From NCBI GenBank assembly GCA_964393095.1, contig CAYMSL010000002.1, positions 1 to 43,622 on the forward strand: DNA of 43,622 nt. Direction: 5' to 3'. The translations under genes and the position numbers were made by a program. Shown here piece after piece: positions 10,956-39,816 of this stretch (positions are counted from its first letter, which is position 1; each line of letters begins with the position of its first letter). Under the pieces are notes generated by a model. That model did not search any database, was not told the origin of the DNA, and saw only the letters and a list, made by a program, of their open reading frames with translations. The stretch is from an uncultured Oscillospiraceae bacterium. GTDB lineage: Bacteria; Bacillota; Clostridia; Christensenellales; CAG-138.

Positions 10956-11226
10956 ATCGGCAGCCTCGCGGGGGTGGGTTCCTGACGCTACGGCGGATAC
11001 GGGACACGGGACAACGATCGCCTGTTCCATCAAAGAGCTGTTTTTTAACGAACCGGCGGGGCATGCTTTTGGGCAGGCCTCGCTTTTTTGCACGAAGTAA
11101 TGGGCGGATACAAGGCGGCAAGAAACGTTGCAGGATACCCGTTTGCGCGAAGGTTGCCGTATGGATGGAAACAATGCAGTAAATACTCGAATGGAAAGTA
11201 TTACGATGGAAATGAAAAAAACCATA

Positions 11227-11235
11227 TGGTATCAT
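11227..11235 (+). promoter_or_regulatory. Candidate extended -10 promoter element (TGgTATCAT) upstream of the EPS operon
   Basis: TGG-TATCAT lies in an AT-rich island (11160-11260). No convincing -35 was found. It would leave a leader of about 230 nt before ATG 11466. Confidence 0.25.
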
Positions 11236-11465
11236 GGACGCGAAAAACTGCAATGGATGGTAGGTGTACCTGCAAAACGGGCGAGGGGGCAGCTGTCGGT
11301 ACGAAATTCGGCCATGGTACGGCGCGGCCTCGGGCGAGACAAACGGTGTGCGTAAGACGGTCGAAAATTGGAATATGCGCGCGGTACGGGCAGAGTAGGG
11401 TTGCTTTCAATGGGGCAGCCGTATCTGACGGATTGGACGTGCAGGATAAAAAGCTGGTGGAGCGG

Positions 11466-18153: not shown

Positions 18154-18157
18154 ACGC

Positions 18158-19402: not shown

Positions 19403-19420
19403 GCGAAAAGGAGAGACGAT

Positions 19421-21595
19421 ATGAGGAGAACGACGACGCTGCTATTGGCCATATGCGCGCTGGCGCTGATATGGCCGGTCAACGCGCAGGCCGCGGGCAT
19501 TGAGGCGGGAGGAGCGGCCCAAGGCGGCGCGCTGGCCGAAACGGAGGAGGAAACGGGGCAGCCGGAAACGGCGGCGCCCGCCGTAAGCACCGCACCGCCT
19601 GTGCTGCAACTGCAGGAGGGCGGCTATGTTTCGACGACGCCCTTTGGCGCGGAGCATTACATGACGGGCCTTTTTTCAACGATCACCGAGGGGTTTAGCG
19701 TCGGCGACTGGACGATAGCGGACGCGCTGCTGACATTGAGCCTTTCGACGACGCAGCTGGCCTCGGAGTACCTCTCCACGCTCACAATTTCGATCAACGG
19801 CGTGCGCTTTTACTCGGAAACCGTACCGCCAAGCGACGGGCTGAGGCGGGAGCTGGCCGTGAGAATCCCCGTCGAGCACATCGTTGGCGGCTATAACGTG
19901 ATCGGGATCGAAGGCTACATCCGCACGTATAACGGCCTTCCGTGCGTGGACGACGTGACCAATGCAAACTGGCTCAACGTCTTTAGCGAATCGCTCGTTG
20001 AGGTTTCTTATACGCCGAACGCCGCATGCAGGACGATCGGGGAATTCTACGACTGCTTTACTTCGATCGACGCGCTCGAAAACAGCCAGAGCGCGGTGAT
20101 CGTGCCGACGGATTTTGACGACGACGAACTTGCGGCCGCCTTTGTCACGCTTGCGGGCGTCTCTAAACAGGCCACAAAGAGCTACCGCAACATCGAGCTG
20201 CTCGCGGCCGACAGCCTGAAAGCGGCGGCGGACAGGAAGTATATCATCTGCATCGCGAAGCCCGGCTGGCTGCCGGCGGAGCTGCAAACGCCGCTTGCCG
20301 AGGCCGGCGGCACGGGAGGCGAGATGGCGACGCTGCTATTCGTACCCGGTACGCCGAACGTGCTCATCGTGACGGCGGAGGACGGTGCGGGACTCAAAAA
20401 AGCTGCGGCGGCGCTCGCCAATGCGGCGTTCATGCGCCAGATGACGGGGCCGCTCAAGCGCATCGGCGTGAACGAGGACGTTCTGATGAGAACGGCGGGT
20501 GTCGCGCAATATACCGCGCTTACCGAAAACGGCACCTACCTCGACGGCGCCTTCCGGCAGGAGGCGGCCTACTTCATCGACTTTGCGAACAACCGCAAGC
20601 TCGCCTCCGGCAGCGAGATCGAACTCGTGTTTCGCTATTCGAAAAACCTCGATTTTGACCGCTCGCTCGTGACGGTATACGTTAACGACGTGCCCGTTGG
20701 CAGCAGAAAACTCTCGGCGGAGCGGGCGGACGGCGACCGCCTCGTGCTGAGCATACCGACCGACGCCGAAACGACGGGCAGCTTTACGCTGAAGGCGGCC
20801 TTCGACCTTGAGATCAAAGACCTTTGGTGCACGCTTCGCCAGGGCGAGACGCCATGGGCGTACATCTCGCCCGAATCGACGCTCCGGCTCAACTCCGCCG
20901 AAACGCCGTACTATCTCTTTGAAAACTACCCGTATCCGTTTGTTTCGGACGGCGCGTTCAACCGCCTTGTGCTCGTGCTGCCGCAGAGCAACGCGGCCGT
21001 CGATCTTGCCCTGACGGGCAGATTGATGCTTACGCTCGGACGCTTTATCAAATACAACACCGGCGAGCTAAGCGTCGTGCGCGCGTCGCAGCCGGGCAGT
21101 CTCGAGGGCAAAAATGTGATCGCGCTCGGCACGCCCGGCAACAACGCCGTGATCAAAGGCCTCAACGAACATCTGTATTTCCGCTTCGACGAAACGGGCG
21201 GCGCGATACAATCCAACGAGAAGCTGCTCATCGAGGCAAACTATGGGCGTACGCTTGCAAGTGCGCAGCTCATCGAATCGCCGTATTCGACAGACGAGCG
21301 AAACGCGATACTCGTCCTGGCGAGCGCCGACGGGGCCGACCTTGGCAAGGCGCTTACCCGCTTTGGCGATACGGCGGAACTCTGGAAACTCTATGGAGAC
21401 GGCTTTGTGACCGACGGCGAAGCGCTGATGCAATACCGCTTCAAGCAGGAGAACGCGAAAGCGTTGCGCAGCGGCGACCGGCTCGGCGAACGCTCCGACG
21501 TAAGACGGCTGCTTTGCATCGCGCTTGCGGCGGCGCTGCTGCTGGCGACAGCCGCCGTATTGCTGTTTGTCCGCTACAGGAGGAAGGTCAAATGA
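19421..21595 (+). CDS. BcsB-like (YdaN-like) synthase partner protein
   Basis: AAAGGAGAG RBS. Signal peptide MRRTTTLLLAICALALIWPVNAQA. A ~680-aa extracytoplasmic region follows. A single C-terminal TM anchor LLCIALAAALLLATAAVLLFVRYRRK matches BcsB topology. Size and position next to the GT2 synthase support the call. Confidence 0.65.
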   Translation: MRRTTTLLLAICALALIWPVNAQAAGIEAGGAAQGGALAETEEETGQPETAAPAVSTAPPVLQLQEGGYVSTTPFGAEHYMTGLFSTITEGFSVGDWTIADALLTLSLSTTQLASEYLSTLTISINGVRFYSETVPPSDGLRRELAVRIPVEHIVGGYNVIGIEGYIRTYNGLPCVDDVTNANWLNVFSESLVEVSYTPNAACRTIGEFYDCFTSIDALENSQSAVIVPTDFDDDELAAAFVTLAGVSKQATKSYRNIELLAADSLKAAADRKYIICIAKPGWLPAELQTPLAEAGGTGGEMATLLFVPGTPNVLIVTAEDGAGLKKAAAALANAAFMRQMTGPLKRIGVNEDVLMRTAGVAQYTALTENGTYLDGAFRQEAAYFIDFANNRKLASGSEIELVFRYSKNLDFDRSLVTVYVNDVPVGSRKLSAERADGDRLVLSIPTDAETTGSFTLKAAFDLEIKDLWCTLRQGETPWAYISPESTLRLNSAETPYYLFENYPYPFVSDGAFNRLVLVLPQSNAAVDLALTGRLMLTLGRFIKYNTGELSVVRASQPGSLEGKNVIALGTPGNNAVIKGLNEHLYFRFDETGGAIQSNEKLLIEANYGRTLASAQLIESPYSTDERNAILVLASADGADLGKALTRFGDTAELWKLYGDGFVTDGEALMQYRFKQENAKALRSGDRLGERSDVRRLLCIALAAALLLATAAVLLFVRYRRKVK

Positions 21596-22437
21596 AGCCG
21601 TTACGAAAGAACCTGCGCACGGATCTGGCCTTTCTTCTATTGCTCGGGCTGCTTTTCGCGTTTTGCGTGTTTTTTCTCGAGCAGCCCTATCGCATGGAGA
21701 ATTTTCTGCTCGCGGCGGCGGTGCTGATCGTGGTGCTGATCGCGTATTTTACAAACCTCACCGTTGGGCTTGCCGTCAATGCCGCGCTGATTCTGCTCTA
21801 TGGCGCCTATGTTGTGTTTCAGAGCCTTACGCGAGGCGTCGCGGTGCGATCGCATGTGTATTTCTGGCTTGTGATGTCGCCCGCGCTGACGACGGCCTTC
21901 TCGCTTTTTACGATGTCGTCGGCCGACCTGCAGGCGCGTACGATAGAACTGGAACAGAGGCTCGAGGCGAGCGCGACGCTCCACGAGGACACGAAGCTCA
22001 AAAACCTGCGGGCGTTTGAACACGACGCGCATATCTATCAAAGCATCGCGCGGCGCTACGGCCTCGACCTTGGCGTGCTGACGATTTGCTTTCAATATGA
22101 GAAAGAGCTTGAGCGGCTCTCCCATCGGGAGGGCATGCGCCGGGTGGTGCTGCGCGTAGCCGAGACGGTGAGGGCGGCCACACGCGCGGAGGACGAGCTG
22201 TATCAACTGGACGGGGACGAGATTACGTTCGCGCTGCTGCTGCTAACGAAGCAAGAGGGCGGCGTCGCGCTGCGCGCGCGCATTCGGGAGCAAATCGCGC
22301 AGATCGATACAAACGACATCCTCAATACGCGGCAACTGGTGCTGGATATGCGCCTGGGCCTCGCGTTTGACGACGGCACGGGAAACGCGCTTGAACTGCT
22401 GGCGGCCGCGAAGGATACGATGCAGTATGACGTGTAG
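21592..22437 (+). CDS. 4-TM degenerate GGDEF-domain protein with intact I-site (YdaK-like candidate c-di-GMP receptor)
   Basis: The start overlaps the upstream stop as ATGA (21592-21595). Four N-terminal hydrophobic helices. The GGDEF-fold landmarks are degenerate: TKLKNLRAFEHD replaces D.LT.L.NRRaf, LTICFQYEKE replaces the DxDhFK metal site, and DGDEI (22210-22224) replaces GGDEF. RAED (22183-22194) sits exactly five residues upstream, the canonical RxxD I-site spacing. Confidence 0.75.
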   Translation: MKPLRKNLRTDLAFLLLLGLLFAFCVFFLEQPYRMENFLLAAAVLIVVLIAYFTNLTVGLAVNAALILLYGAYVVFQSLTRGVAVRSHVYFWLVMSPALTTAFSLFTMSSADLQARTIELEQRLEASATLHEDTKLKNLRAFEHDAHIYQSIARRYGLDLGVLTICFQYEKELERLSHREGMRRVVLRVAETVRAATRAEDELYQLDGDEITFALLLLTKQEGGVALRARIREQIAQIDTNDILNTRQLVLDMRLGLAFDDGTGNALELLAAAKDTMQYDV

Positions 22438-23977
22438 GGCCGCGCGGCGGCGATGGCAGTCATGGGCCGTTTTCCCGGCATTTCTGCTGCTGATGGCGTG
22501 CACGGGGCAAGGCGCGCCGCAAGCCGCCGAAAGCGCTGTGCCCGAGGACGCGGCGGCCGTCGCGGCGGCGGATAGCGAATGGCACTACGAGGCGGAGGAG
22601 GCCGAGCGCTCCGATCTATGCCGCTATGCGCGCACGGAGGACGGCGGCTTTGTCGAGGCGGAGGACGGCGGCTATGTCGGCCTCTGGGCGGACAGCGCGT
22701 GCAGCCTGACCTTCCACGTGCTCGCGCCCGTCGACGGCGTGTACGAGCTGGATTTTCTCGCGGCCGCCTGCAAGACGGAAAGCTACGATACGGTACGCGT
22801 CAACGAGCGTACGCTTTACGAAGCGCTCCATATCGCGGCATCAACGCCCGGCAGCGCCACGATCAAGGCGCGCCTCAAAGAGGGCGGCAACACGGTAAGC
22901 GTATTCGCGGGCTGGGGCTGGTTTTACCTCGACCGTCTCAGCGTACGCCCGGGCGAAGGCATCTCCGACGACGTCTACCGCTCCGCGTTCCGGCTCTCGA
23001 ACAAAAACGCCTCCGCGAACGCCCGGCGGCTCATGCGCTATCTTGCCAGCGAGTATGGCGTACGCACGCTCTCCGGCCAGTACGCCTCCGAAGGCGGCAT
23101 AGATTCGCCGGAGGTGCGGGCGATCCACGCGCTGACGGGGAAATACCCGGCGATCCTCGGCTTTGATTTGATGGACTATTCGCCGAGCCGGGTGATGCGC
23201 GGCGCGCAGACAAAGCAGGTCGACGACGCGCTCGCCTGGGCGAATCAAGGCGGTATCGTCGCGCTGATCTGGCACTGGAACGCGCCGAAAGACCTCGTCG
23301 ATTCCGCCGGTCAGCCCTGGTGGCGCGGGTTCTACACCGAGGCCACGACGTTTGACCTCGACGCGGCGCTCAATGGGCGCGACCCTGCGGGCTACCGGCT
23401 GATCTTGCGCGATCTTGACGCGATCGCCGAGGCGCTCAAGCCGCTTGCGGCCGCGGACGTACCCGTATTGTGGCGGCCGCTCCACGAGGCAAGCGGCGGC
23501 TGGTTTTGGTGGGGCGCATACGGGGCCGACAACTACATCGCGCTCTGGCGGCTCATGTACGAGCGCTTTACCCGCATGCACGGCCTCGACAACCTGCTCT
23601 GGGTCTACAACGGGCAGGACGCGGCCTGGTATCCGGGCGACGCGTACGTCGACCTCATCGGCGAGGACGTCTATACGGCGCCGCGGGACTACGAAAGCCA
23701 CTATAACCGCTTCGAACGGGCGCTTTCCTATACCGATGTGCCGAAGATCATCGGTCTTTCGGAAAACGGCGCGATTCCCGACCCGGAACTGCTCGCGGCG
23801 GACAACGCGCGCTGGTCGTTTTTTATCACCTGGTGCGAGCGCTACGCCGTCGATGCGGAAAGCGGCGCCATTTCGGATGTGTATAACGACCTCGCGCACT
23901 GGAAAAGGGTCTACGAAGACGAGGCCGTCGTCACGCTCGACGAGCTGCCGCGTCGTGCGTTTTACTTGCCGGGTTGA
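22427..23977 (+). CDS. Lipoprotein with an N-terminal CBM6/35-like module and a GH26 (beta-mannanase family) catalytic domain
   Basis: ATG 22427 overlaps the upstream gene by 11 nt. Lipobox FLLLMAC. CBM-like pattern WHYEAEEAE....GGYVG....[17 protein letters not shown]....GGNTVSV....YLDRLSV. GH26 signatures [24 protein letters not shown] (acid/base HE) and IIGLSENG (candidate nucleophile). Confidence 0.8.
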
Positions 23978-24486: not shown

Positions 24487-27207
<2,721 letters not shown>

Positions 27208-28567: not shown

Positions 28568-30121
28568 TTAGGAGAATTTTACGAACAATACGCCGTCGAT
28601 CACCCGGCACGATCCGACGTCCGGAAAGGCGGGCATGGCGCGGATATCCGCCCGCTCGCCGTAGCGCGCGATCTCTTCCCTGTCCGCAATCAAGAGAGCC
28701 GGGTATCCGAGAATGCCGTTTATGAAGTTCCGGTATGTCTGCGAATACGTAACGGAGAAATTGCCGTGCATGCCGACCGCTTCGAGCCCTTCAAAGCCCT
28801 GACGGCTTGCGGATAGTTTCGAGTTGCTTAGCTTGCCGATGATGGCAACCGGCGTTTGGTCGACGACGTATCCTTCCGTCTGCTCCATCCGGTCGATGAC
28901 TCTGGTCATGATCGATAGCGTGGCCTGGTATTCGAGATCCTTCTTGAGGTATAGCTGGTTGGCGTAGACGACGTTGTTGAGTATAAGCAATGCGGCGGCA
29001 AAAACGGCGGCCGTTCTCGCGGCGGAGGCGAGGCGCGCTTTCTGAACGTTGACGTGCGCAACCTCGATCTGCTCCTCGAGCGCAAACTTATGCTCCAGTA
29101 TCAGGAAGACAAAGACATAGACGAAATTGAAGGAATAGGACATCAGCACATGCTTGAGGCCCTTTGCGAGGAAATAGACGATATCCATTCCGAGCGGCAT
29201 CAAAGCGATGATCAGCGCGAGCAGGCCGATATTCTGCGGCGGCAGCCGACGGGCCCGCACGATCTGGATCAGGCTCACGCCCGCAAACAAGATCAGGGCG
29301 ACGTTGAGCACCGCGGCGAATACCGGGTGGAAGGTGTTCGGCAAAACAAAGTATTTCCCGGGGAAGATATATGTTTTTACAAGGAGTTCCGGGATGGATG
29401 CCTGCGTGTAATCCCCAAGTTCGGAAAGTCCGTTATAGGAGTTTGCGAGGCCAATGCCGGTAAGCCGCAGCACGACCTGCAGGCTGATATAATAGAGAAC
29501 CAGGCCGAGCAGCAACGTGGCGAGCGCTTTTAGGCCGCGCACAACGATGGCCCTTGCCTCGGTTTTATCGAAACAATCCCTGGCAAGCAGAATTAGAAAC
29601 AGCAGGATTGCGGACTCGATATAGCTTTGATATAACGCGAGCGAAAAACAAAGCGGAATCGCCCCGAGCAGGAATCCAAACCGCCGGGTTCGGCACAGGT
29701 GGACGGCCAGAACGCTGCATAGAAGCGCCATGGTATACATATCCGTCCAGGGAATATAGGTTGCGTTGGCCAAAGCAAGAACGGCGTTTGTCGAGAGAAT
29801 GCCGCAGGTAAGGGCGATTGATCCGTGTGTGCGAAGCCCCAGCAGCTTGATTACGAGATAGATGGCTGCGGCCAGCCATGTGAGCGAGAAGAGCCCGATC
29901 AGCCACGGCGCGCACAATTGGCCGCGCAGCAGCAAATAGACCGGTTGAAGAAAGCGGCCGAAGGCGATCTGCCCCTGCGCCTCGTTTTGAAAGACCATGG
30001 TGGAATCGTGCGAGTTGCTTGTGCTGAAATATCGAAACGCATGCGCGGCCAGCCCGAATAAAAACGTCAGCGCAGCCACCCGTTTTGCCATTGGGCGGTC
30101 GATGGCACTTGCTTTTTTCAT
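28568..30121 (-). CDS. GtrII-like polytopic glucosyltransferase-domain membrane protein
   Basis: I prefer ATG 30121 (AAAGAGG lies 5 nt upstream; MKKASAIDRP...) over the track start 30160. About 11 hydrophobic helices are followed by a C-terminal soluble domain. The N-terminal pattern AHAFRYF..SNSHDS........GRFLQP resembles the Glucos_trans_II family. GC content is visibly lower than in the flanks. Confidence 0.55.
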   Translation of the reverse strand: MKKASAIDRPMAKRVAALTFLFGLAAHAFRYFSTSNSHDSTMVFQNEAQGQIAFGRFLQPVYLLLRGQLCAPWLIGLFSLTWLAAAIYLVIKLLGLRTHGSIALTCGILSTNAVLALANATYIPWTDMYTMALLCSVLAVHLCRTRRFGFLLGAIPLCFSLALYQSYIESAILLFLILLARDCFDKTEARAIVVRGLKALATLLLGLVLYYISLQVVLRLTGIGLANSYNGLSELGDYTQASIPELLVKTYIFPGKYFVLPNTFHPVFAAVLNVALILFAGVSLIQIVRARRLPPQNIGLLALIIALMPLGMDIVYFLAKGLKHVLMSYSFNFVYVFVFLILEHKFALEEQIEVAHVNVQKARLASAARTAAVFAAALLILNNVVYANQLYLKKDLEYQATLSIMTRVIDRMEQTEGYVVDQTPVAIIGKLSNSKLSASRQGFEGLEAVGMHGNFSVTYSQTYRNFINGILGYPALLIADREEIARYGERADIRAMPAFPDVGSCRVIDGVLFVKFS

Positions 30122-30370
30122 ACAAACCTCTTTTACAGATGTCCGTTGTCTGGTAAGCACTCATGTGCAGTATAACACGCAAAGAGGACAAACGGAACGC
30201 TTTCCTGTGCGGCGGCCTGTTAAACGCACGCGAAGATAACAGGATACGGCGCGCGGGAAAGCGCGCTCCGGCGGCGCGGCAAAGGCCCGCGGCGTTATCG
30301 ACGACCTGTGAAATACATTTATTCTTGAATCGTGCGATATTTCGCGTATAATCTCCTTGAGGAGCGTGAC

Positions 30371-31975
30371 ATGCTGAAAAAGGTCGTCTGGTTCATCTCC
30401 GTATTATTGCTGGCTTGCATTGCCGTCGGGGCTTTCTATCTCGAGGGGTTTCTTTCGTTTCCCGAAGCGCATTACCTGCGCGAGATCAGCGCCCTAAGCC
30501 AGGACGGGTTAGACGCGATGATCGCCGGGCGCAGTCCGTCCGGGAGAAAATTTCTTTCCCTTTCCTACGATACCTATGAATTGCCCGTATTGGACGGCGA
30601 AACGGACGTTTTTCTGTTTTGCGGCGATTTGGCGGACGGCATTCTGGTCGATCGCAACCTCAGTTGCAGCGTCGCGCAGGTGCGCGGCGAGCACGACGTT
30701 ACGCTGGTTGCGTGGAACGACAGCGCGTATCGAATCTATCGGCTCGAGTTTACGCAACTGCCCATCGTCACGATCGAACTAGCGGGAAGACCGATGGCAA
30801 GGTGGGCGGCGGATGAATACCGCGACGGGGTTCTTACGGTGTTCGACGACAACACGGGGGAGGCGCGGCGCCTGTATGCGAGCTTTAAGGTGCGCGGCAC
30901 TTCGAGCGCTTATCAACTGAAGAAAAGCTATACGATCAAACTCAGGGATGTCAACAGCGGCGGAGAAACGCGCGCCTCCATCTTGGGCATGGACGAAAAC
31001 ACCCGCTTCGCGCTGAACTCGCTGTATGAGGACGATTCCAAGATCCGGGATTTCGCCTCGATGACGCTCTGGCGAAAAATGACGCAAAGCGGGGACTACG
31101 AAGCGGGAAACGGCTTTGGCATAACGCCCGCGGAGGTCTTTTACGAGGGGGAATACTGGGGACTGTACGGCTTTCAGGAGGTTAGCAACCGTGACGCGCT
31201 GGCCATGAGCAAGACGCGGGCAACGGCGCTTTTTAAGGTGCTGTCCCATCTGCCGCCGCCGGAGGACAAGCCCGACGCGCGGGCGAAGCTTTGGGGCGAC
31301 ATCGAGCTTGCGGATGCCAAAGCAGGCGGCTCCTGGGACTTTTTTGCCGCGTATGCGCATCTGGCCTACTATGAATCGGACGAAGCGTTTGTAAAAAACG
31401 TCTGGACTTATTTAAATGCAAACAACTGCGCGGACTATTGCCTGCTGGTTTCGGCGCTGTATGCGAGCGACAACACCTGGAAGAATACGGCGATTGTGCA
31501 GACGGCGGACGATCGGGGGCGGGAAAGCCTGCTCCTCGTACCCTGGGACATGGATCTTTCGTGGGGCGCGGCGTGGGACAACAGCGTTTCAACAAAAGCA
31601 AGCCTCGATCTTTCGCGGGCGACGGCCGGGCCGTTCATGTGGGATCGCAGCGCCCCGGTAAACGCAGGCTGCGAGCCCTCGCTGGCAGCGGAACTGCCGC
31701 TTATAACGACAAGATTGTGGGCGCTCGACCTGGATGGCTTTCGCAACAGGGTTGCCACGCGCTGGTTCGAATTAAGAAAGGGCCCGTTTTCGGAGCGGAA
31801 TCTGCTGAACCTTGTCAACGCGGCGTACGACGAGATCACAAGCAGCGGCGCAAGGCGGCGGGACGCGGCCCGCTGGCCGGAGGGCGCTCTCAGCGAGGAC
31901 AATTCCTTTATGCAAACGTTTATCGTGTTGCGGCTGCGCTATCTCGACGCGTTTTTTGCCGACTACGCGCTTTGA
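30371..31975 (+). CDS. CotH-family atypical kinase-like protein, membrane-anchored and extracytoplasmic
   Basis: ATG 30371 after GAGGAG. N-terminal anchor VVWFISVLLLACIAVGAFYL. CotH-like blocks KKSYTIKLRD, FALNSLYEDDSKIRDFASMTLWRKM, VFYEGEYWGLYGFQEV and LLVPWDMDLSWG. Confidence 0.7.
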   Translation: MLKKVVWFISVLLLACIAVGAFYLEGFLSFPEAHYLREISALSQDGLDAMIAGRSPSGRKFLSLSYDTYELPVLDGETDVFLFCGDLADGILVDRNLSCSVAQVRGEHDVTLVAWNDSAYRIYRLEFTQLPIVTIELAGRPMARWAADEYRDGVLTVFDDNTGEARRLYASFKVRGTSSAYQLKKSYTIKLRDVNSGGETRASILGMDENTRFALNSLYEDDSKIRDFASMTLWRKMTQSGDYEAGNGFGITPAEVFYEGEYWGLYGFQEVSNRDALAMSKTRATALFKVLSHLPPPEDKPDARAKLWGDIELADAKAGGSWDFFAAYAHLAYYESDEAFVKNVWTYLNANNCADYCLLVSALYASDNTWKNTAIVQTADDRGRESLLLVPWDMDLSWGAAWDNSVSTKASLDLSRATAGPFMWDRSAPVNAGCEPSLAAELPLITTRLWALDLDGFRNRVATRWFELRKGPFSERNLLNLVNAAYDEITSSGARRRDAARWPEGALSEDNSFMQTFIVLRLRYLDAFFADYAL

Positions 31976-31986
31976 GGCAGGTTGGA

Positions 31987-32682
31987 ATGACGGAGTATCG
32001 AAACGAGCACAAATTTATCTGCCAGCAGCGGCAAATCGAGGTGCTGAAGGCGCGGCTGGGGCCGGTTTTGCGGCCTGACGCGCACCAAGCGGGCGAGAGC
32101 TACCGCGTAAGAAGCCTTTACTTTGACGACGAGGACGACTCCGCCTTTTACGACAACGACGCGGGAACCGACAACCGCAAGAAGTTTCGTATCCGCGTGT
32201 ACGACCGTCCCGAAGAGACGATCCGCCTCGAGATCAAGTATAAAAAGCGCGGCGGAACCCATAAGGAATCCTGCTCGCTGCCCCGGGAGCTCTGCGAAGA
32301 TATTCTCGCGGGGCGCGGCCTTAAATGGCGTGCGGATTTTCCGTTTCCGCTGCAGGAGCTCTATCGGCAGATCGGCCTAAACGGGCTGCGGCCGCGCGTC
32401 ATCGTTGAATATGAAAGAAGCGCGTATGTCTGCCGGGCCGGCAACGTTCGGGTCACGTTTGACCGAAACATCGCCTGCTCCGAGCGGATCGGGATGTTTT
32501 TGCAGGATGCCATACCGCTCTTTCCCATACTTCCGCCGAACGTACACCTGCTCGAGGTAAAGTACGACGAATTCATACCGGACTACATACTCCAATTGCT
32601 CGAAACGGGCGAGTTGACCCGCACCACGTTTTCGAAATATTATCTTGCCTGCCTGGCGCAGAAGGGGGAATACATATGGTAA
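31987..32682 (+). CDS. VTC-domain (polyphosphate-polymerase-like, CYTH-like tunnel fold) protein
   Basis: Internal ATG 31987 of track ORF 31438-32682, 11 nt after the CotH stop. Blocks YRNEHKF, YRVRSLYFDD, RKKFRIRVYD, IRLEIKYKK and LLEVKYDEFIP match bacterial VTC-domain proteins. Confidence 0.75.
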   Translation: MTEYRNEHKFICQQRQIEVLKARLGPVLRPDAHQAGESYRVRSLYFDDEDDSAFYDNDAGTDNRKKFRIRVYDRPEETIRLEIKYKKRGGTHKESCSLPRELCEDILAGRGLKWRADFPFPLQELYRQIGLNGLRPRVIVEYERSAYVCRAGNVRVTFDRNIACSERIGMFLQDAIPLFPILPPNVHLLEVKYDEFIPDYILQLLETGELTRTTFSKYYLACLAQKGEYIW

Positions 32683-33335
32683 CCGAGATACTCAAGCGCT
32701 TCACCGAAACGGGAGGATACAGCTACCAGCACATGCTGCTGATACTGCTGCTGAGCTGTTTGATTGCCCTGTATATCTTCATCATCTACAGGGTGATTGC
32801 GAAGGCGACGGTCTTTTCCAAGACATACGGCATAACCGTCGGCGGCATCGGGATCGTGACGACATCGATCATTCTCGCGATGCAATCGAGCCTCGCCATC
32901 GCTTTGGGCATGGTCGGCGCGCTTTCGATCGTGCGCTTCCGCACGGCGATCAAGGACCCGCTAGATCTGCTGTTTTTGTTCTGGGCAGTCGGCGAGGGGA
33001 TCATCTGCGGCTCCGACCTGCTGGGGCTCGCGCTGATTATGTGCGTGGTGATGACGGTGGCGCTGCTTGTTTTCGACAAATTTCCCGTGAAAAGGGCGCC
33101 GTATCTCGTGGTGATCAACAGCCAGGACCGCCGGGCGGACGAGCAGGTGGAGCAGGCGCTGCGGGAGGTCAAGTGCAGCTACAAGGTCAAGTCGAAAAAT
33201 ATAACGCGGCACGGCGTGGATATGATCGTCGAACTGCGCGCAAAGGACCCGCGGGAAATTCTCGAGCGCTTGCTTGCGCTGGAGGCGACGGAAAATGTTA
33301 CGCTGCTTGCGCACGACGGCGAAACGCGGTATTGA
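32676..33335 (+). CDS. DUF4956 membrane protein
   Basis: The ATG overlaps the VTC stop by 7 nt and follows GAAGGGGGAA. TM helices plus the signature LGMVGALSIVRFRTAIKDPLDLLFLFWAVGEGI. A C-terminal soluble domain follows. Confidence 0.75.
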   Translation: MVTEILKRFTETGGYSYQHMLLILLLSCLIALYIFIIYRVIAKATVFSKTYGITVGGIGIVTTSIILAMQSSLAIALGMVGALSIVRFRTAIKDPLDLLFLFWAVGEGIICGSDLLGLALIMCVVMTVALLVFDKFPVKRAPYLVVINSQDRRADEQVEQALREVKCSYKVKSKNITRHGVDMIVELRAKDPREILERLLALEATENVTLLAHDGETRY

Positions 33336-33372
33336 AGAGGCGGCGGTTACCCGCGCAAGCACGTTGAGCGGC

Positions 33373-33402
33373 TTGGCAATATACGTCGAAACGTAGTATA
33401 CT
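33373..33402 (+). promoter_or_regulatory. Candidate sigma-70 promoter for the 33429-38120 operon
   Basis: TTGGCA (33373-33378), an 18-nt spacer, then TATACT (33397-33402). It lies 27 nt upstream of the ATG. Confidence 0.5.
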
Positions 33403-33428
33403 CATGGCACTAGAGAGGATTGCCGCTC

Positions 33429-34799
33429 ATGCTCATCAACCCCTTTCGCGCAAAGCGAAGCTGGCCGCTGCTTTTGCTTCTGGCCGCTGTTTTTCTCGGG
33501 CTGTTCGCGCGCTATGGCGTGGTGTTTGCCAACGATTCGTATACCTATATCAATGGCAGCGTGCGGGTGAGTCCACTGTATCCGGCCCTGATCGCGCTCT
33601 TTCGCGCGGTGTTTCCGGCAGAGTGGCATCTCGAAGCCCTCGTCGTTACGCAGGAGCTTTTGGCCGCCTACGCGATCTTTTCCCTGATGGCATACCTGCG
33701 CGAGCGCTTTTCCATCGGCGCGGCGCTTGGGACGATCCTATCCCTTGGTTTTACGGGCGCGTATATGCTAAGGCTCGTGCTCGTGGGAGAGGAGGCGCTC
33801 TACTGCAACGCCATCCTCACCGAGGCGATCACCTATCCGCTCTATTTCCTGTTTGTAAAGTACGCGTTTGCGGCGTTTGATCAAGCCGACCTGCGGCCGC
33901 TTGTCACCGCGTTCATCCTGGCGTTTCTGCTTGCCTGTACGCGCGGGCAGATGCTCTTTCTCTTGCCGGTTCTGCTCGTCGTGTTTTTGCTGATTTTGCG
34001 CGGGCGTCGTCCGCAAAAGGGAGAAAAGCGTTTGCTTTGGCTGCACGCTCTGCTCATGGGGGCCGGTTTTTTTGCGGGGATATCGCTTACGTCCGCCGCT
34101 TATAACGCCGCGTTAAGCGGCGTAGCCGCCCAGACGACGATGGGCGCGGAGGCGGTCTTCGGCGCGCTGCTCTACAACAGCGGCGCGGAGGACGCGGCGC
34201 TCTTTGCCGAGGGTTCCGAGGAGCGGGAGATCCTATTTGAGACGCTGACGCGCGGCGAAACGGAAGGGCTTACGTACAAGAGCGCGCCGAAGGACGTGCT
34301 CGGGCATTTTCAGCACTACGAAGCCTCGCACGATCCGCTGCGCGGCGTCCTGCTCGAGGTCATCGGCGAGCGGTATCGAAGCGAGCTGCCCAACGACGAC
34401 GCGACGCGCCTGATCCTTGTCGATTACGCGGGCGCGGTGTTCCCGGCGCTTCTTGCCGACAACCTTGGCGAGTACCTTTACAACGCCCTGATCAACTGCT
34501 TTGGCGGACTCGTGCGCGCGAACTCCATCATGCGGCGCGCGGGCGTGCTCTGGAGCGCGCTGGTCTACGCGCTCTGCGCCGGCTTTTTGCTCCTTTCTCG
34601 CGGGCGCATATCGCTCGATCCCGAACGCAGATTGATGCAATTGATCCTGCTGAGCGCGCTGGCAAACGCCGCGTTCTGCGCTTTCGGCGTATTCGCACTC
34701 TCGCGCTATGTATACTATAATTTCCCCTGCATGTACCTTGCGCTGGCGCTCTATGCAATCGCGCTGTGGAAGCGGCGCCGGAAGGGCGTGCGCGTATGA
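33429..34799 (+). CDS. Polytopic membrane protein, GT-C-like (family not recognised)
   Basis: ATG 33429 lies 9 nt after GAGAGGA; TTG 33420 is an alternative start. At least 10 hydrophobic helices. The first-loop motif is FANDSYTYINGS. A ~110-aa loop lies near residues 240-350. Confidence 0.5.
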   Translation: MLINPFRAKRSWPLLLLLAAVFLGLFARYGVVFANDSYTYINGSVRVSPLYPALIALFRAVFPAEWHLEALVVTQELLAAYAIFSLMAYLRERFSIGAALGTILSLGFTGAYMLRLVLVGEEALYCNAILTEAITYPLYFLFVKYAFAAFDQADLRPLVTAFILAFLLACTRGQMLFLLPVLLVVFLLILRGRRPQKGEKRLLWLHALLMGAGFFAGISLTSAAYNAALSGVAAQTTMGAEAVFGALLYNSGAEDAALFAEGSEEREILFETLTRGETEGLTYKSAPKDVLGHFQHYEASHDPLRGVLLEVIGERYRSELPNDDATRLILVDYAGAVFPALLADNLGEYLYNALINCFGGLVRANSIMRRAGVLWSALVYALCAGFLLLSRGRISLDPERRLMQLILLSALANAAFCAFGVFALSRYVYYNFPCMYLALALYAIALWKRRRKGVRV

Positions 34800-36682
34800 T
34801 GGCGGCTTTCGCTCTCTTTTTCGTGCTGTGTTCGGGCAGCGCGCTTGCCTGCGCGTTTAGATACCGCTTCGAGCGGATACTGCCGCTTACGGTGCTGGCA
34901 TCGATCCTTGTTCTGTATTGCGCCGGGTTATTCGACGCGCTGCGCGCCGGCGCTGTCGCCGTTTCCGTCGGCGCGGCGTTCTGCTGGGCTGTCACGTTCA
35001 TTCGGCTCGTTCGCCTGCGCGCGTGGCATGCGTTTATGCGGCGCTTCTTTACGCCCGCGTTCGGCATCTATGCGGCGCTGTTTATCGTCTCGCTGATTGG
35101 CAACTATGGCCGCGAGGTATCCGCCTGGGACGATCTGACCCACTGGGCGGATACGGTCAAGCAGATGTGCCATCTTCACGCGTTCGGCGCGAGCGAGGGC
35201 GGGTTTGCACTCTATCCCAACTACCCGCCCGCCATGGCGCTGATGCAGTATTACGCGCAGATGCTAAATTGCCTGTTTACCGGAACGGACTTTTGCGAAT
35301 GGCTGCTGTTCCTCGCGTATTCGGCGGCGCTGTATGCGTTTCTCGTGCCGTTTATGGAAAGGCTCGGCTGCCGAAACTGGTTTACGAACCTTTGCCTGCT
35401 CGCCGCCGTATTTCTATTGCCCGGCATGTTGCACCGAAGCCAGTTCCGCCTTCTCGACATCGATCCGTTTTTAGGCGTGCTCGCGGGCTACGGGCTCTCG
35501 CTCGCGGCGCTTGGCAGGCAAGATGACGGCGCGGATATCGCCGCGGGCGCGCTCGGCGCGTTTGTGCTGACGCTCGCCAAGGAGTCCGGTTTGTATTTTG
35601 CGGCGGTCATATGCGCCGCGCAGCTGCTTTCCGCCCTGATAAAGGAAGGCGCGCCGGGATATCGCAGCAGGCGTTTTCTTGCGCCGGGGCTCGGGGCGCT
35701 GCTCGCCGCCTTCGGCTATCTGAGCTGGCAGGGGTATCTGGACGCAAACGGCGCCTATCGGGCCTTTTCCGAACCGGCGCGATTCGATGTGCTTTGGCGC
35801 GTGCTGCGCGGGACGGAGGGCGGGTATCGCCAGCGGGTCTTAGCGGCGCTGGGACCGCGGCTGTTTGCGCCGGGTTATCCGATCGGCGTAGCCGAGGTTG
35901 GCGTGAGCGCCGCGGCGCTGTTTGTGCTGCTGATTGCGCTGTTTCTTCTCTTTGCGCTGCTGCGGCGGCGAAAGAACCCCGTCCGGCGGCTCGTCTGCGT
36001 CGCCGCTCTCGGCGGCGCGGCGGCGCTGCTGTTTGTGCCCGGCATCGGGATTATGTACCTCTTTAAGTTTACGGAGGCGGAAGCGCTGGCGCTGGCCTCG
36101 TTTGAACGGTACATGGGCGTACCGCTCATGATGCTCATGACGCTTCTGTTTCACGCGGGCGTCGACGCGATGGCGGATGGCGGGCCGGAGAAGCGGCGCG
36201 TTATCGCGGTGCTTGCCGCGCTGCTGATATGCTTTGCGCCGGCGCAGGAGGCGGCGAGTTTTCTGCTCGGGCGAAACCGCGCCTATGCGGCGAACGTGCG
36301 CGCGCAGGCGGACGAGGACGCCGCAGGCGTGTTTGCGCTATTGGTCGGGCAGACGCGCAAGATCAACGTCGTCTCTTTGGAAAACGACGGCCTGGATTTC
36401 CTGATGATGCGCTTTGCGCTGCGGCCAAACCGCGTTGCGGGCGCCTGGTATATCAAGGAGCAGCGATTCAACCCCGAGGATATCTGGGAAAACCCGCCCC
36501 AAAGCGCGTACGAGTGGAGCCAACGGCTGCTCGCGGAGGGTTACGACTACGTGCTGCTCTACCAGTTTGATGACGCATTTTGCGAAACCTTCGCCGCAGC
36601 CTTTGCAGACGGCGCGGCGATGCGCGAGCATACGCTCTACGCCGTGGATCCGGCGACGGGGCTTTTAAAGGAGGCCGGCTAG
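34796..36682 (+). CDS. Polytopic membrane protein, GT-C-like (family not recognised)
   Basis: ATG 34796 overlaps the upstream TGA (ATGATG). About 12 helices. An acidic loop motif SAWDDLTHWADTVKQM follows TM3. The C-terminal ~150 aa are soluble. Confidence 0.5.
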   Translation: MMAAFALFFVLCSGSALACAFRYRFERILPLTVLASILVLYCAGLFDALRAGAVAVSVGAAFCWAVTFIRLVRLRAWHAFMRRFFTPAFGIYAALFIVSLIGNYGREVSAWDDLTHWADTVKQMCHLHAFGASEGGFALYPNYPPAMALMQYYAQMLNCLFTGTDFCEWLLFLAYSAALYAFLVPFMERLGCRNWFTNLCLLAAVFLLPGMLHRSQFRLLDIDPFLGVLAGYGLSLAALGRQDDGADIAAGALGAFVLTLAKESGLYFAAVICAAQLLSALIKEGAPGYRSRRFLAPGLGALLAAFGYLSWQGYLDANGAYRAFSEPARFDVLWRVLRGTEGGYRQRVLAALGPRLFAPGYPIGVAEVGVSAAALFVLLIALFLLFALLRRRKNPVRRLVCVAALGGAAALLFVPGIGIMYLFKFTEAEALALASFERYMGVPLMMLMTLLFHAGVDAMADGGPEKRRVIAVLAALLICFAPAQEAASFLLGRNRAYAANVRAQADEDAAGVFALLVGQTRKINVVSLENDGLDFLMMRFALRPNRVAGAWYIKEQRFNPEDIWENPPQSAYEWSQRLLAEGYDYVLLYQFDDAFCETFAAAFADGAAMREHTLYAVDPATGLLKEAG

Positions 36683-36731: not shown

Positions 36732-38120
36732 GTGGTCAAACGCTGGCAGCAGCTGCTCAACCAGTTTAACCGGCTGATCGATTTTGTGCTGATCGCTGCG
36801 TCTTATTTTGCGGCGGTCTATTTCTGGCTGCTTGTTGTGCGGCAGGATCAGGTAAACATCGCGTTGAAGCTCACGCGTTCGGGATGGATTGCCCTCGCGC
36901 TCGCGGCAATCGTCGTGCTGCTCTATCAACTGACCGGGCTGTACGATTCGGTGCGGGCCAAGCCGCTTGGTCACGGCGTAAAGTGGATACTTTTTATCCA
37001 TGCGATCGTATCGCTCATCGGCGCGGCGGCATTGTTCGTCTTTCGCCTGGAGGACTTTTCGCGCGGCGTCATCGTGTCGTTCTTCGCGATATCGAGCGCG
37101 CTTGCGATCATCAAGCGGGCGGCGATGCGGCGGATGCTTTCGCTCGCGCGCAGCCGCGGGCTCAACCAGAAGCATGTGATTCTGGTCGGCAGCGGCCATC
37201 TCGCGCAGAAGTACGTCGAGATGGTTCGCCGTTATCCCCACTTCGGTTTTACGATTGACGGCTATATCGGGCGCGCGGACGCGCTGAAGGACGTGCGCTG
37301 CTACGGCTCGTGGGAGAGCGCCGGCGCGCAGCTCGACCGGGCCGGTCTTGACGAGGTGGTCGCGGCGCTGGATCAGGATGAGATCGGCCTCCTGCCCGCC
37401 GTCATCGCGGCAACGGAAAAGTACGGCACGAAAGTTTCGATTATACCGTATTTCAACGACTACATACCCGCAAGCACGACGCTTGAAACCGTCGGCGAGT
37501 GCAAGCTGCTCAACGTGCGCACAACACCGCTTGATTTCCCCGCGAACGCGCTGCTCAAGCGTACGGCCGACATCCTCGCGTCGCTTTTCTTCATCATTTT
37601 TGCAAGCCCCGTGCTGCTCATCGCCGACATCGGCGTTAAGCTCTCAAGCCCCGGGCCGGTCATCTTCCGCCAGACGCGCGTGGGCAGGCGCAAAAAGACC
37701 TTCCAGATGTATAAGTTCCGCTCCATGCGCGTCAACGAAGCGGAGGACACCGCGTGGACAAAGGATGCCGACCCGCGCAAGACGAAGTTCGGCAGCTTCA
37801 TTCGCAAGACCAGCATCGATGAACTGCCCCAGTTTTTCAACGTGCTCAAGGGGGATATGAGTATCGTCGGCCCAAGGCCGGAGATACCGCACTTTGTCGA
37901 ACAGTTTAAGGAGACGGTCCCGCTGTATATGCTCAAGCATCTCGTGCGCCCCGGCATCACTGGCTGGGCGCAGGTGCACGGCTACCGCGGCGATACGTCC
38001 ATCGCGGGGCGCATCGAGCACGACATCTGGTACATCGAGCACTGGACGATGGGGCTGGATTTGCGCATTTGCCTGATGACCGTGTTCGGCGGCATGGTCA
38101 ACAAGGAGAAGACCGTTTGA
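36732..38120 (+). CDS. Polyprenyl-phosphate sugar-phosphate transferase (large WcaJ/CpsE-type priming phosphoglycosyl transferase)
   Basis: GTG start after GAGGGGAGGAGAG. Four or five N-terminal TM helices and a central Rossmann-like segment (VILVGSGHLAQ). The C-terminal bacterial sugar-transferase domain carries PGPVIFRQTRVGRRKKTFQMYKFRSM and DELPQFFNVLKGDMSIVGPRPE. Confidence 0.85.
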   Translation: MVKRWQQLLNQFNRLIDFVLIAASYFAAVYFWLLVVRQDQVNIALKLTRSGWIALALAAIVVLLYQLTGLYDSVRAKPLGHGVKWILFIHAIVSLIGAAALFVFRLEDFSRGVIVSFFAISSALAIIKRAAMRRMLSLARSRGLNQKHVILVGSGHLAQKYVEMVRRYPHFGFTIDGYIGRADALKDVRCYGSWESAGAQLDRAGLDEVVAALDQDEIGLLPAVIAATEKYGTKVSIIPYFNDYIPASTTLETVGECKLLNVRTTPLDFPANALLKRTADILASLFFIIFASPVLLIADIGVKLSSPGPVIFRQTRVGRRKKTFQMYKFRSMRVNEAEDTAWTKDADPRKTKFGSFIRKTSIDELPQFFNVLKGDMSIVGPRPEIPHFVEQFKETVPLYMLKHLVRPGITGWAQVHGYRGDTSIAGRIEHDIWYIEHWTMGLDLRICLMTVFGGMVNKEKTV

Positions 38121-38320: not shown

Positions 38321-38352
38321 GAATGATGGCGCGGCGGCGAATTCCGCCCGCG

Positions 38353-39816
38353 CTATGCTTTTTGCGTCTCCTTGCGGGCGCGGTAGAAGCGGAAGAGGAA
38401 GCCCGCGGCCAGCATAAGCCAGACCCATACGAGCGTCGGCATGGGGTCGACAAAGAGCATCTGCTCCATCATCCCCACAATGACCGAAAGCAGCACGACG
38501 GCGGGCAGCAGGCGCACATGGAGACTGGCGGGGCTGGAAAAGTCCGAGAACATCAGGCGCAGGCTGATCAGCGCGACCGCGGCCAAAAACAGCAGGATGA
38601 ACAGGAGCCCGATCACGCCAAGGCCGACCAACGCCGCGACGAGGGAATTGTGGAAATTATACTGCGGTACATGCGCCGGGAAATAGGGCGTCATCAACTG
38701 GCCCGCGATCAGCGGCGTCGCGCCGGTGAGCAGGATCGACGGATTGTCCATAAGCCCCCTGAACGTGGCAAGCCAGATATCGACGCGGCCATTGAACGTG
38801 CCGGCGTCGGAGTAGTCGCGCTGGGAGGCCTGCTGATACACGGAATCGCTCGCGGGCGCGGCGTTGGGATCGCTTGCCGGCGCGGCTTCGGAATCGCTCG
38901 CGGGCGCGGCTTCGGCTTCGATTGCGGCCGTCGCCCTGAGTTCGGCGTAGCGGTTGTATCCGCCGCGCACAAGGAGCGTGCCAAGGTAGAAGAGGACGGC
39001 GGCAAGCAGCGCGACGGCAAGGCAGAGCAGGATGCGGGGGTTCTTTTTCGCGTGCCGAAAGAGGAACGCCCCGCCGATGAGCAGGGCCTCGAGCCCGAAT
39101 GCGAGCGCGCTGCCGAGTATTCCCGTGCGGCTGTCCGTCAGCGAGAGCGCAACAAAGCAGATCAGGAAGGCGAGCGTAACGAGCACGCGGAATCGGCGTT
39201 TTTTTACCGTGCAGAAGAGGTAGACGCACAGCAGCAGGCTGATGCCGCACATCGACGCCGCGGCGTTTGCATGACAGAAGAGCTCCAGCCTGCCGTCGCT
39301 GCTCATGCCAAGCACACCTTCAACGCCGTCAAGGGCAAACGTCCGGCCCAACGCGACAAACACGAGCGAACCCGCGGCAAACAGCGTCGTCGTGACGATC
39401 GTGACCGCCGCAAGGCCGCTCAGCACCCCCTGCCATTTGGCGCGTTCGAACGCGTAGGGCAGCGAGAAGCACAGGAAGCTGATTGCAAGCTGGCTCTGAA
39501 ACCAACTGCTTGAAAGCGCGCCGTCGGCGCGGCCGCTGTTGAGCACGGCGACGATGGCCGTCCACAAAAGAAAGGCGCCGAGCCAGCGGATTTCGGGAAA
39601 GCGGGCATAATCGCGGGTAAAGACCAAGAGGGCCATGATACACAGGGCCGCGGGATACAGCAGGTATGCAACCACAGCCCCGCCGTGCGCCGCGTCGACA
39701 AAGCGGAAGAAGGACATGAGGATGCAACCGGCCGCGCCGAGCACGGCAAGGGCCCGCCAGATGCGCGCCCGATCGCGCAAAAACGCGCGCGGGGTATGGA
39801 GCGAATCTTGCTTCAA
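38353..39816 (-). CDS. O-antigen ligase / Wzy-like polymerase family membrane protein
   Basis: TTG start after GAGGGGGA. At least 10 TM helices. The Wzy_C-type block LTDSRTGILGSALAFGLEALL is followed by a large extracytoplasmic loop. Confidence 0.7.
   Translation of the reverse strand: MKQDSLHTPRAFLRDRARIWRALAVLGAAGCILMSFFRFVDAAHGGAVVAYLLYPAALCIMALLVFTRDYARFPEIRWLGAFLLWTAIVAVLNSGRADGALSSSWFQSQLAISFLCFSLPYAFERAKWQGVLSGLAAVTIVTTTLFAAGSLVFVALGRTFALDGVEGVLGMSSDGRLELFCHANAAASMCGISLLLCVYLFCTVKKRRFRVLVTLAFLICFVALSLTDSRTGILGSALAFGLEALLIGGAFLFRHAKKNPRILLCLAVALLAAVLFYLGTLLVRGGYNRYAELRATAAIEAEAAPASDSEAAPASDPNAAPASDSVYQQASQRDYSDAGTFNGRVDIWLATFRGLMDNPSILLTGATPLIAGQLMTPYFPAHVPQYNFHNSLVAALVGLGVIGLLFILLFLAAVALISLRLMFSDFSSPASLHVRLLPAVVLLSVIVGMMEQMLFVDPMPTLVWVWLMLAAGFLFRFYRARKETQKA
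38843..38914 (-). repeat. 3 x 24-bp imperfect in-frame tandem repeat inside the ligase-like gene
   Basis: Plus-strand units start at 38843, 38867 and 38891 (gaatcgctcgcgggcgcggc...). They encode AAPASDSE / AAPASDPN / AAPASDS in the large loop. Confidence 0.85.

Follow-up and report, generated by a model that had tools for sequence, protein, structure and literature searches.

The DNA analysed here is a 43,622-nt stretch from an uncultured Oscillospiraceae bacterium (GenBank assembly GCA_964393095.1, contig CAYMSL010000002.1, positions 1 to 43,622 of the forward strand), hereafter the window, which carries a trio of adjacent genes encoding CotH-family, VTC-domain, and DUF4956 proteins. Our comparison of related loci indicated that the VTC and DUF4956 genes form a near-obligate, translationally coupled pair and that one pair can accompany one to three CotH genes. 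The predicted domains and topologies suggest that the trio is a self-contained envelope cassette, with a kinase-fold enzyme outside the membrane, a tunnel enzyme inside, and a small membrane protein between the two.

Organization of the trio

The three genes lie on the same strand as follows:

30371-31975, plus strand: CotH-family gene (534 aa)
31987-32682, plus strand: VTC-domain gene (231 aa)
32676-33335, plus strand: DUF4956 gene (219 aa)

After the open reading frames (ORFs) and their starts had been rechecked, the layout described in an earlier, sequence-only reading of this DNA proved exact: an 11-nt gap (31976-31986) lies between the CotH and VTC genes, and the VTC stop is overlapped by 7 nt by the DUF4956 start (32676-32682). 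Purine runs resembling Shine-Dalgarno sequences are located 5' of all three starts (GAGGAG for CotH, GAGG for VTC, and AAGGGGG for DUF4956). The family assignments of that reading were likewise confirmed by Pfam scores above the curated cut-offs; no model in NCBIfam matched any of the three proteins. The window, which has a G+C content of approximately 60%, contains one copy of each family. All three proteins look functional, as their motifs are intact.

DNA nearly identical to positions 30300-33400 was found only in DNA metagenome runs from wastewater and anaerobic digesters, which shared at most 67% of the sampled words. The nearest protein relatives of the trio proteins were from uncultured Eubacteriales.

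Linkage of the three genes across genomes

The linkage sample consisted of the best 80 loci from genomes of different species, each encoding a VTC relative; these are the closest VTC relatives (39-49% identity), and the ORFs of each locus were scored with models of the three families. The VTC and DUF4956 genes were adjacent in 79 of the 80 loci, the sole exception being located at a contig edge. The median gap between the two genes was 14 nt, and overlaps of 4-11 nt were frequent. A CotH gene was present in 75 loci, at a distance of no more than 300 nt in 72; two of the five loci that lacked one were cut at a contig edge. The CotH count depended on the model, as a narrow model detected 60 of 80 and a broader model that included divergent forms detected 75 of 80. 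The loci that seemed to lack CotH under the narrow model held divergent CotH proteins with Fn3_assoc and CHB_HEX_C modules.

The gene order varied among the loci (C, CotH; V, VTC; D, DUF4956): CVD was found in 44, VDC in 7, cVD in 5, and DVC in 3, in addition to arrays with several CotH genes. Two or three CotH genes were present in 17 of the 80 loci, and in arrangements such as CCVD, VDCC, and CCCVD several of them flanked a single VTC/DUF4956 pair. The hosts included Lachnospiraceae, Oscillospiraceae, and Bulleidia among the Bacillota families, as well as Treponema, and the trio occurs in numerous bacteria of the gut and of wastewater. A genome contains only a few CotH genes. Because the high frequency of adjacency persists through rearrangements, and given this small number of CotH genes, the gene maps argue that the adjacency of the trio cannot be due to chance or to mere shared ancestry. 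The sequence-only reading, which had called the trio a conserved module, is borne out on this point.

The trio proteins differed in their divergence. The median identity to the window protein was 25% for CotH, 45% for VTC, and 43% for DUF4956, and the best non-self matches reached 42% for CotH versus 71% and 74% for VTC and DUF4956, respectively. Judged from these identities, CotH evolves much faster than the VTC/DUF4956 pair.

Some genomes carry tandem arrays in which two or three CotH genes precede a single VTC/DUF4956 pair, and others carry two complete trios within 10 kb (multi-CotH arrays or double-trio loci: L046, 3122-10109; L026, 6698-11439; L067, 665-5395; and L002, L018, L050, and L076). 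The two trios of L076 are in inverted orientation.

Predicted properties of the VTC protein

The VTC protein matched PF09359 almost end to end (E 1.4e-38; residues 5-222; model positions 2-231 of 235; score 133.2 bits, cut-off 23). A Pfam search revealed no second family at E <= 0.01 and reported no SPX or other domain. Membrane segments were predicted in 0 of 84 VTC proteins, which agrees with the soluble topology claimed earlier. Bacterial proteins with this domain are numerous, comprising 11,412 cluster representatives at E <= 0.001.

A single-sequence search of the PDB with the VTC protein retrieved nothing relevant, and a profile was needed; a profile of 29 sequences matched yeast Vtc4 (3g3q) with an E of 6.4e-6, better than its match to the inactive Vtc2 (E 0.012). 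In Vtc4, the triphosphate is coordinated by K200, R264, R266, K281, Y359, R361, S457, and K458, the mutants of which have lower polyphosphate. Three basic residues (R196, K294, and R373) lie close to the exit of the tunnel, Mn2+ is bound by E426, and only K458 is missing from Vtc2 and Vtc3 (bioRxiv 10.1101/2023.01.27.525886; PMC9911596). The tunnel residues of the window protein are R5, E7, K9, R68, R70, E82, K84, K93, Y142, R144, R155, E190, K192, S216, and K217, and the profile-based residue map gave the following correspondences:

VTC R5: Vtc4 R196
VTC K9: Vtc4 K200
VTC R68: Vtc4 R264
VTC R70: Vtc4 R266
VTC K84: Vtc4 K281
VTC K93: Vtc4 K294
VTC Y142: Vtc4 Y359
VTC R144: Vtc4 R361
VTC R155: Vtc4 R373

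The tunnel residues were 97-100% conserved in 145 cluster representatives. The triphosphate-binding residues K9, R68, R70, K84, Y142, and R144 were 98-100% conserved, and K217 was kept in all 145. The invariant motifs E190-x-K192 and S216-K217 resemble E426-x-K428 and S457-K458 of Vtc4 by motif and spacing only, as no alignment spans them. These data suggest that the VTC protein is a soluble, cytoplasmic triphosphate-tunnel enzyme and a candidate polyphosphate polymerase similar to Vtc4.

Predicted properties of the DUF4956 protein

The DUF4956 protein matched PF16316 in Pfam (E 1.7e-12). Its AlphaFold2 (AF2) model (predicted local distance difference test score [pLDDT] 73) comprised five helices followed by a beta-alpha-beta-beta-alpha-beta tail, consistent with the membrane protein with a soluble tail that had been described from the sequence:

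32724-33080, plus strand: helical membrane bundle (residues 17-135; AF2 model)
32934-32954, plus strand: invariant R87-x-R89-x3-K93 loop
33102-33311, plus strand: ACT-like tail, predicted to be cytoplasmic (residues 143-212; Foldseek)

The DUF4956 proteins of the different loci contained 3-5 membrane segments each; for the window protein we count 4-5 membrane helices. R87, R89, K93, D97, and W103 were 100% conserved in the 80 loci; conservation of the ACT tail was lower (70-91%). By the positive-inside rule, the basic loop and the ACT tail of the model are predicted to face the cytoplasm.

In a Foldseek search of the PDB, only the tail was matched, to ACT domains that included the C-terminal domain of Mycobacterium tuberculosis MgtC (2lqj). 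Sub-threshold matches to MgtC (PF02308) covered the membrane part in 34 of 37 DUF4956 homologues, with a best E of 0.0062; the window protein scored 10.4 bits, below the cut-off of 31.4. An hhalign comparison with Escherichia coli YhiD was co-linear but weak (probability 12%). Because the tail matched ACT domains, the MgtC matches were weak, and no VTC chain was retrieved, we regard DUF4956 as MgtC-like in architecture, and perhaps distantly related, rather than as a VTC channel; we do not assign it to the MgtC family.

We also considered DUF4956 as a relative of the yeast VTC membrane channel. Homology was rejected by the Foldseek search; the two may be analogous.

Predicted properties of the CotH protein

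CotH-family proteins are common on bacterial and fungal surfaces. The window protein matched the whole of PF08757 (E 5.6e-30; residues 173-525; model positions 2-322 of 322; score 105.4 bits, cut-off 23.8), and its AF2 model (pLDDT 86) contained an anchor helix, a beta-sandwich, and the CotH domain. The following features were assigned:

30374-30445, plus strand: membrane anchor (residues 2-25), a hydrophobic helix preceded by Lys-Lys
30467-30895, plus strand: beta-sandwich (residues 33-175; AF2 model)
30896-31972, plus strand: CotH domain (residues 176-534; AF2 model)
31469-31486, plus strand: putative catalytic motif D367-x4-N372 (profile alignment to 5jd9)
31541-31555, plus strand: putative catalytic motif P391-W-D393-x-D395 (profile alignment to 5jd9)

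The top Foldseek matches of the model were the Bacillus cereus CotH structures 5jda and 5jd9 (E 1e-16; target-normalised template modeling [TM] score 0.74-0.76), and nothing else notable was retrieved. As with the VTC protein, a single-sequence PDB search gave nothing relevant and a profile was needed; the CotH family profile matched 5jd9 (E 1.4e-12) with both Asp motifs aligned. The mutations D228Q and D251A inactivate Bacillus subtilis CotH (PMC7821199); the equivalence of D367 and D393 to B. subtilis D228 and D251 was inferred from a numbering offset of 4. Of 86 trio-linked CotH proteins, 84 retained D367 and 85 retained D393, making a purely structural role unlikely.

An N-terminal anchor was present in 85 of 89 trio-linked CotH ORFs of other loci, and the divergent forms bear the extracellular modules Fn3_assoc, CHB_HEX_C, and LRR. 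Given the anchor helix, the fold, and the alignment of both Asp motifs, the window CotH appears to be membrane-anchored with its bulk outside the membrane, as the sequence-only reading had proposed, and looks catalytically competent.

A possible mechanism and its alternatives

We propose, tentatively and with somewhat less than an even chance of being right, that polyphosphate is made at the membrane and passed outward to the CotH enzyme. The VTC enzyme would dock on the tail and basic loop of DUF4956 and there, on the cytoplasmic side of the membrane, link gamma-phosphates of ATP into polyphosphate. A DUF4956 oligomer would carry either the polymer or phosphoryl groups from it across to the outside, where CotH would transfer phosphate onto a wall glycopolymer or a surface protein. 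The VTC/DUF4956 pair would thus be a shared supplier of phosphoryl donor in an ATP-free compartment, and the CotH paralogues would be its substrate-specific users. We favour such a direct functional dependence because of the one-supplier/many-users pattern, the slow divergence of the pair versus the fast divergence of CotH, and the extracellular modules of the CotH proteins. The predicted compartments of the three proteins, their retained catalytic residues, the conserved linkage, and recurrent neighbours that act on wall glycopolymers also fit the model. The similar scheme of the sequence-only reading is supported in part, in its components and their linkage.

A more specific version, which we consider unlikely, is that the pair is a two-piece bacterial counterpart of VTC, in which a soluble Vtc4-like polymerase docks on an MgtC-like oligomer that extrudes polyphosphate to the cell surface, and the CotH proteins use this polyphosphate instead of ATP to phosphorylate wall glycopolymers or surface proteins. 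If true, it would explain in a general way what powers kinase-fold enzymes beyond the bacterial membrane and would give the MgtC fold its first transport-type role.

Several points weigh against the passage of polyphosphate to CotH or against the polymerase assignment itself. The crossing of the membrane by polyphosphate and its use by CotH are purely inferential. We know of no protein-kinase-fold enzyme that uses polyphosphate as a donor, and in the crystal of B. cereus CotH (5jda) the protein is bound to Mg2+ and AMP, a nucleotide. By Foldseek, DUF4956 is unrelated to the yeast VTC membrane domain, and the PDB search gave no channel-like match for its membrane part and no VTC membrane chain. 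MgtC, whose architecture is the nearest among characterised proteins, is known as a regulator, not as a transporter, and the authors of a study of the Streptococcus intermedius trio favour the view that polyphosphate is probably retained in the cytoplasm (bioRxiv 10.1101/2024.04.20.589940). No fusion of VTC to DUF4956 or CotH was found in the best 150 representatives, all of which are 176-286 aa long. The equivalences proposed for E190, K192, S216, and K217 are pattern-based only, because the C-terminal 82-residue profile of the VTC family gave only chance matches in the PDB. Finally, Glu7 of the VTC protein (32005-32007) is present in 142 of 145 representatives, the rest being gaps, where yeast Vtc4 has Thr198; the resulting R-x-E-x-K strand is more like the ExExK metal motif found in CYTH hydrolases and hints at hydrolytic chemistry.

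As the main alternative, polyphosphate may be made at the membrane and stay in the cytoplasm. DUF4956 would then only tether or regulate an active polymerase, its ACT tail serving as a metabolite sensor in the manner of MgtC-type control of ATP and phosphate, and the link to CotH would be indirect, for example through shared regulation of the envelope or biofilm state or of the phosphate economy. We hold this explanation to be possible, if rather doubtful. The architecture and weak sequence signal of DUF4956 point to MgtC, ACT domains are typically ligand-binding regulatory modules, and in the window, L082, and L086 the trio has GGDEF genes and exopolysaccharide loci in its vicinity. The preference of the S. 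intermedius authors and the regulation of ATP synthase and PhoR by MgtC also agree with it (bioRxiv 10.1101/2024.04.20.589940). However, it leaves unexplained why an extracytoplasmic CotH is adjacent in 72 of 80 loci across gene orders and contexts and why the CotH copy number varies around a single pair, and the conservation of DUF4956 is highest in the membrane bundle and basic loop, not in the ACT tail.

The chemistry of the tunnel enzyme and the independence of CotH provide two further alternatives. The VTC protein could be a hydrolytic or cyclising enzyme (a tripolyphosphatase, nucleotide triphosphatase, or cyclase), the product or activity of which acts on or through DUF4956. The triphosphate-tunnel superfamily consists mostly of hydrolases and cyclases (CYTH/YgiF, CyaB, and ThTPase), the invariant Glu7 resembles part of an ExExK metal site in place of Thr198 of Vtc4, and the protein lacks the SPX and membrane domains of Vtc4. 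We nevertheless judge this quite unlikely, as PF09359 is matched end to end (E 1e-38) with no other Pfam family reported at E <= 0.01, the best solved relative is Vtc4 (E 6e-6) rather than the inactive Vtc2, and the triphosphate-binding residues of Vtc4 are kept, as is, by motif pattern and spacing only, the lysine absent from Vtc2 and Vtc3. CotH, for its part, could be the real effector and use extracellular or released ATP, or a non-catalytic surface protein or adhesin, while VTC/DUF4956 serves an unrelated, co-inherited need. B. subtilis CotH uses ATP, CotH proteins of Mucorales act as surface invasins, and five of the 80 loci lack CotH, although two of these are cut at a contig edge. B. 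subtilis CotH has also been described as a Ser/Thr kinase and came out of a search for atypical protein kinases (PMC7821199). The retention of the catalytic Asp residues in 84-85 of 86 trio-linked CotH proteins, however, and the expectation that functionless co-inheritance would not survive the observed rearrangements and changes of context make this explanation very improbable.

Bacterial polyphosphate has been attributed to PPK1 and PPK2. The trio bears on whether bacteria have a VTC-type polymerase, on the role of the MgtC fold, and on the fuel for extracytoplasmic phosphorylation, and it touches the question of how kinase-fold enzymes outside the cell are supplied with a phosphoryl donor. 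It is a compact three-gene system that is also present in tractable streptococci and in Clostridium perfringens. If the pair makes only cytoplasmic polyphosphate, the result would be a modest addition to polyphosphate metabolism.

Local signals and genomic context

The main features around the trio are as follows:

16855-23977, plus strand: synthase-type exopolysaccharide cluster (DUF2334-like protein, GT2 synthase, BcsB-like protein, GGDEF protein, and CBM35-GH26 hydrolase)
28568-30160, minus strand: GtrII-type polytopic glucosyltransferase (PF14264, E 4.4e-29), divergent from the trio
30325-30352, plus strand: sigma-70-like promoter match, TTGAAT-16-TATAAT, 19 nt 5' of the CotH start (consensus match only)
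33420-34799 and 34766-36682, plus strand: two overlapping genes for polytopic membrane proteins, 85 nt 3' of DUF4956
36732-38120, plus strand: Bac_transf phosphoglycosyl transferase (PF02397, E 1.7e-67), a type that initiates undecaprenyl-phosphate-linked glycan synthesis

The promoter match upstream of CotH sits in a 210-nt divergent intergenic region common to the GtrII gene and the trio; six sigma-70-like matches were found versus 2.9 expected in the scanned region, so that such matches are weak evidence. No terminator-like site was found between DUF4956 and the next gene (33335-33420), an interval that contains a promoter-like match at 33373-33402. The membrane-protein genes at 33420-36682 may be co-transcribed with DUF4956. 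Their products had no Pfam match even at E <= 1, and no relatives of them were found near the trio in the 80 other loci; they may be uncatalogued GT-C-like glycosyltransferases or polymerases. The GtrII gene is placed outside the conserved unit because a homologue is next to the trio in 0 of the 80 loci.

The exopolysaccharide cluster, which is not a pel locus, is located 6-14 kb upstream of the trio, and a minus-strand P-type ATPase gene, a TIM-barrel gene, and the GtrII gene lie between the two. We observed no clear recurrence in the 80 loci of GtrII, the two membrane proteins without Pfam matches, the TIM-barrel protein, the P-type ATPase, BcsB, or GH26. Relatives of the GT2 synthase were found near the trio only as weak matches (approximately 22-26% identity, 11 loci). 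Homologues of the Bac_transf protein occurred near the trio in 17 of the 80 loci and also in L082.

Over the 80 loci, the recurrent neighbours were GT2, Bac_transf, LytR-CpsA-Psr, YfhO, MBOAT, GtrA, and DUF6056, and at least 30 loci contained GT2 (three clusters), Bac_transf, LytR-CpsA-Psr, YfhO, or MBOAT. These recurrent families assemble or modify glycopolymers of the wall, several of them acting outside the membrane. In L082, L083, L085, L086, and L087, by contrast, the trio stands alone among unrelated genes (including those for pyrimidine synthesis, iron transport, CorA, and acetate kinase), indicating that the conserved unit is the three genes and that a glycan context is frequent but not required. 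The earlier statement that the trio sits among surface-glycan genes is partly true: the window has GtrII, Bac_transf, Wzy_C, and GT2/BcsB/GGDEF/GH26 genes, but relatives of the trio are also found among unrelated housekeeping genes.

Downstream of the Bac_transf gene, two ORFs on opposite strands overlap: 38353-39816 (minus), with a Wzy_C domain (O-antigen ligase/polymerase), and 38323-39513 (plus), with no match. Because the domain match is confined to it, the minus-strand ORF is probably the real gene.

Genes for the transport of divalent or other cations were observed near the trio in three loci: CorA in L086 (9767-10708), CNNM/CorC in L087 (3416-4687), and the P-type ATPase of the window (24487-27207, minus strand). 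Polyphosphate chelates Mg2+ and Ca2+. This neighbourhood may be a coincidence, because the window ATPase has no counterpart in the 80 loci.

The left part of the window contains a c-di-GMP-I riboswitch (1136-1224, plus strand; RF01051, 69.9 bits, E 8e-12) approximately 110 nt 5' of a Tad/Flp pilus operon (1334-9612) that encodes a prepilin peptidase, TadE, a TadG-like protein, CpaB/RcpC, a TadZ-like ATPase, a T2SSE ATPase, and two T2SSF proteins. The gene at 11088-15188 (plus strand) encodes a protein of 1366 aa that combines an S-layer homology repeat with a carbohydrate esterase domain of the SASA type and is probably a wall-anchored glycan deacetylase. At the right end, an ATP synthase subunit a gene (42484-43380, plus strand; PF00119) is presumably the start of the atp operon. 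Salmonella MgtC has been reported to act on ATP synthase subunit a; we show no link of this gene to the trio.

Comparison with known systems

Bacterial CYTH-CHAD proteins such as YgiF are also tunnel-fold proteins linked to polyphosphate, in which CYTH-type (PF01928) tripolyphosphatases are fused to a polyphosphate-binding CHAD domain. The window protein differs from them in being VTC-type, in having no CHAD domain, and in having a membrane partner. MgtC/SapB/YhiD proteins (PF02308) are similar to DUF4956 in size and layout, with a membrane bundle of approximately 135 aa followed by an ACT-like tail of approximately 80 aa, but all sequence scores of DUF4956 fall below the thresholds of that family. 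We know of no MgtC protein that partners with a tunnel enzyme or with CotH.

The site of action of Bacillus CotH is the cytoplasm of the mother cell, which contains ATP. The window CotH shares with it the fold (TM score 0.76 to the target) and both Asp motifs (5jd9/5jda; PMC7821199) but is outward-facing and membrane-anchored, has an extra N-terminal beta-sandwich, and is only approximately 16% identical.

The yeast VTC complex (Vtc4/Vtc3 or Vtc2/Vtc1), a eukaryotic polyphosphate polymerase and translocase (PMC9911596; bioRxiv 10.1101/2023.01.27.525886), has a tunnel domain of the same Pfam family as the window VTC protein, with the triphosphate-binding residues in common, and both have a small membrane partner. 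The basic tunnel-exit residues K294, R373, and K428 of Vtc4 correspond to K93, R155, and K192 of the window protein, the last by pattern only. The window VTC protein has neither SPX nor a fused membrane domain, whereas the yeast complex forms a hetero-pentameric channel; the membrane partner in the window is the MgtC-like DUF4956 with an ACT tail instead of the three-helix VTC membrane domain, Glu7 stands in place of Thr198, and the target compartment would be the cell exterior, not the vacuole. The window VTC protein may work like yeast VTC but is not a member of that complex.

Another close system is the accessory gene set of Gram-positive pel operons, in which cotH, a "poly-phosphate polymerase" gene, DUF4956, and DUF4832 are contiguous with pel in streptococci, clostridia, and bifidobacteria (Whitfield et al. 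2020, PMC7112168). In S. intermedius, SIR_1594/1593/1592 encode a secreted CotH and a cytoplasmic VTC-like polymerase, each retaining catalytic residues, together with a protein that joins an MgtC-family membrane domain to an ACT tail; the study in question did not find the trio outside pel operons (bioRxiv 10.1101/2024.04.20.589940). C. perfringens NELoc-2 contains two VTC-domain genes, each followed by a gene annotated as tubulin/FtsZ, plus CotH (PMC2879425). Our literature search found no experiment on the trio, and reports on Streptococcus mutans, Bacteroides thetaiotaomicron, and Zetaproteobacteria Sfz6 in which DUF4956 or a CotH domain appears give no functional data for it. The literature thus agrees with the sequence-only reading that the bacterial association has no experimentally defined function, but the association itself had already been published, in 2020 (PMC7112168) and 2024, and is not new.

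The window trio and the pel accessory set comprise the same three contiguous families with the same domain reading. The window trio, however, has no adjoining pel gene (no contiguity with pelDEA(DA)FG) and no DUF4832 hydrolase; Pel families were absent from the approximately 40 ORFs of the window searched with Pfam and from all five annotated loci. What our analysis adds to the known systems is a stand-alone cassette without pel genes, the near-obligate pairing of VTC with DUF4956, the possible service of several CotH proteins by one pair, and a quantified conservation of the catalytic residues in all three proteins.

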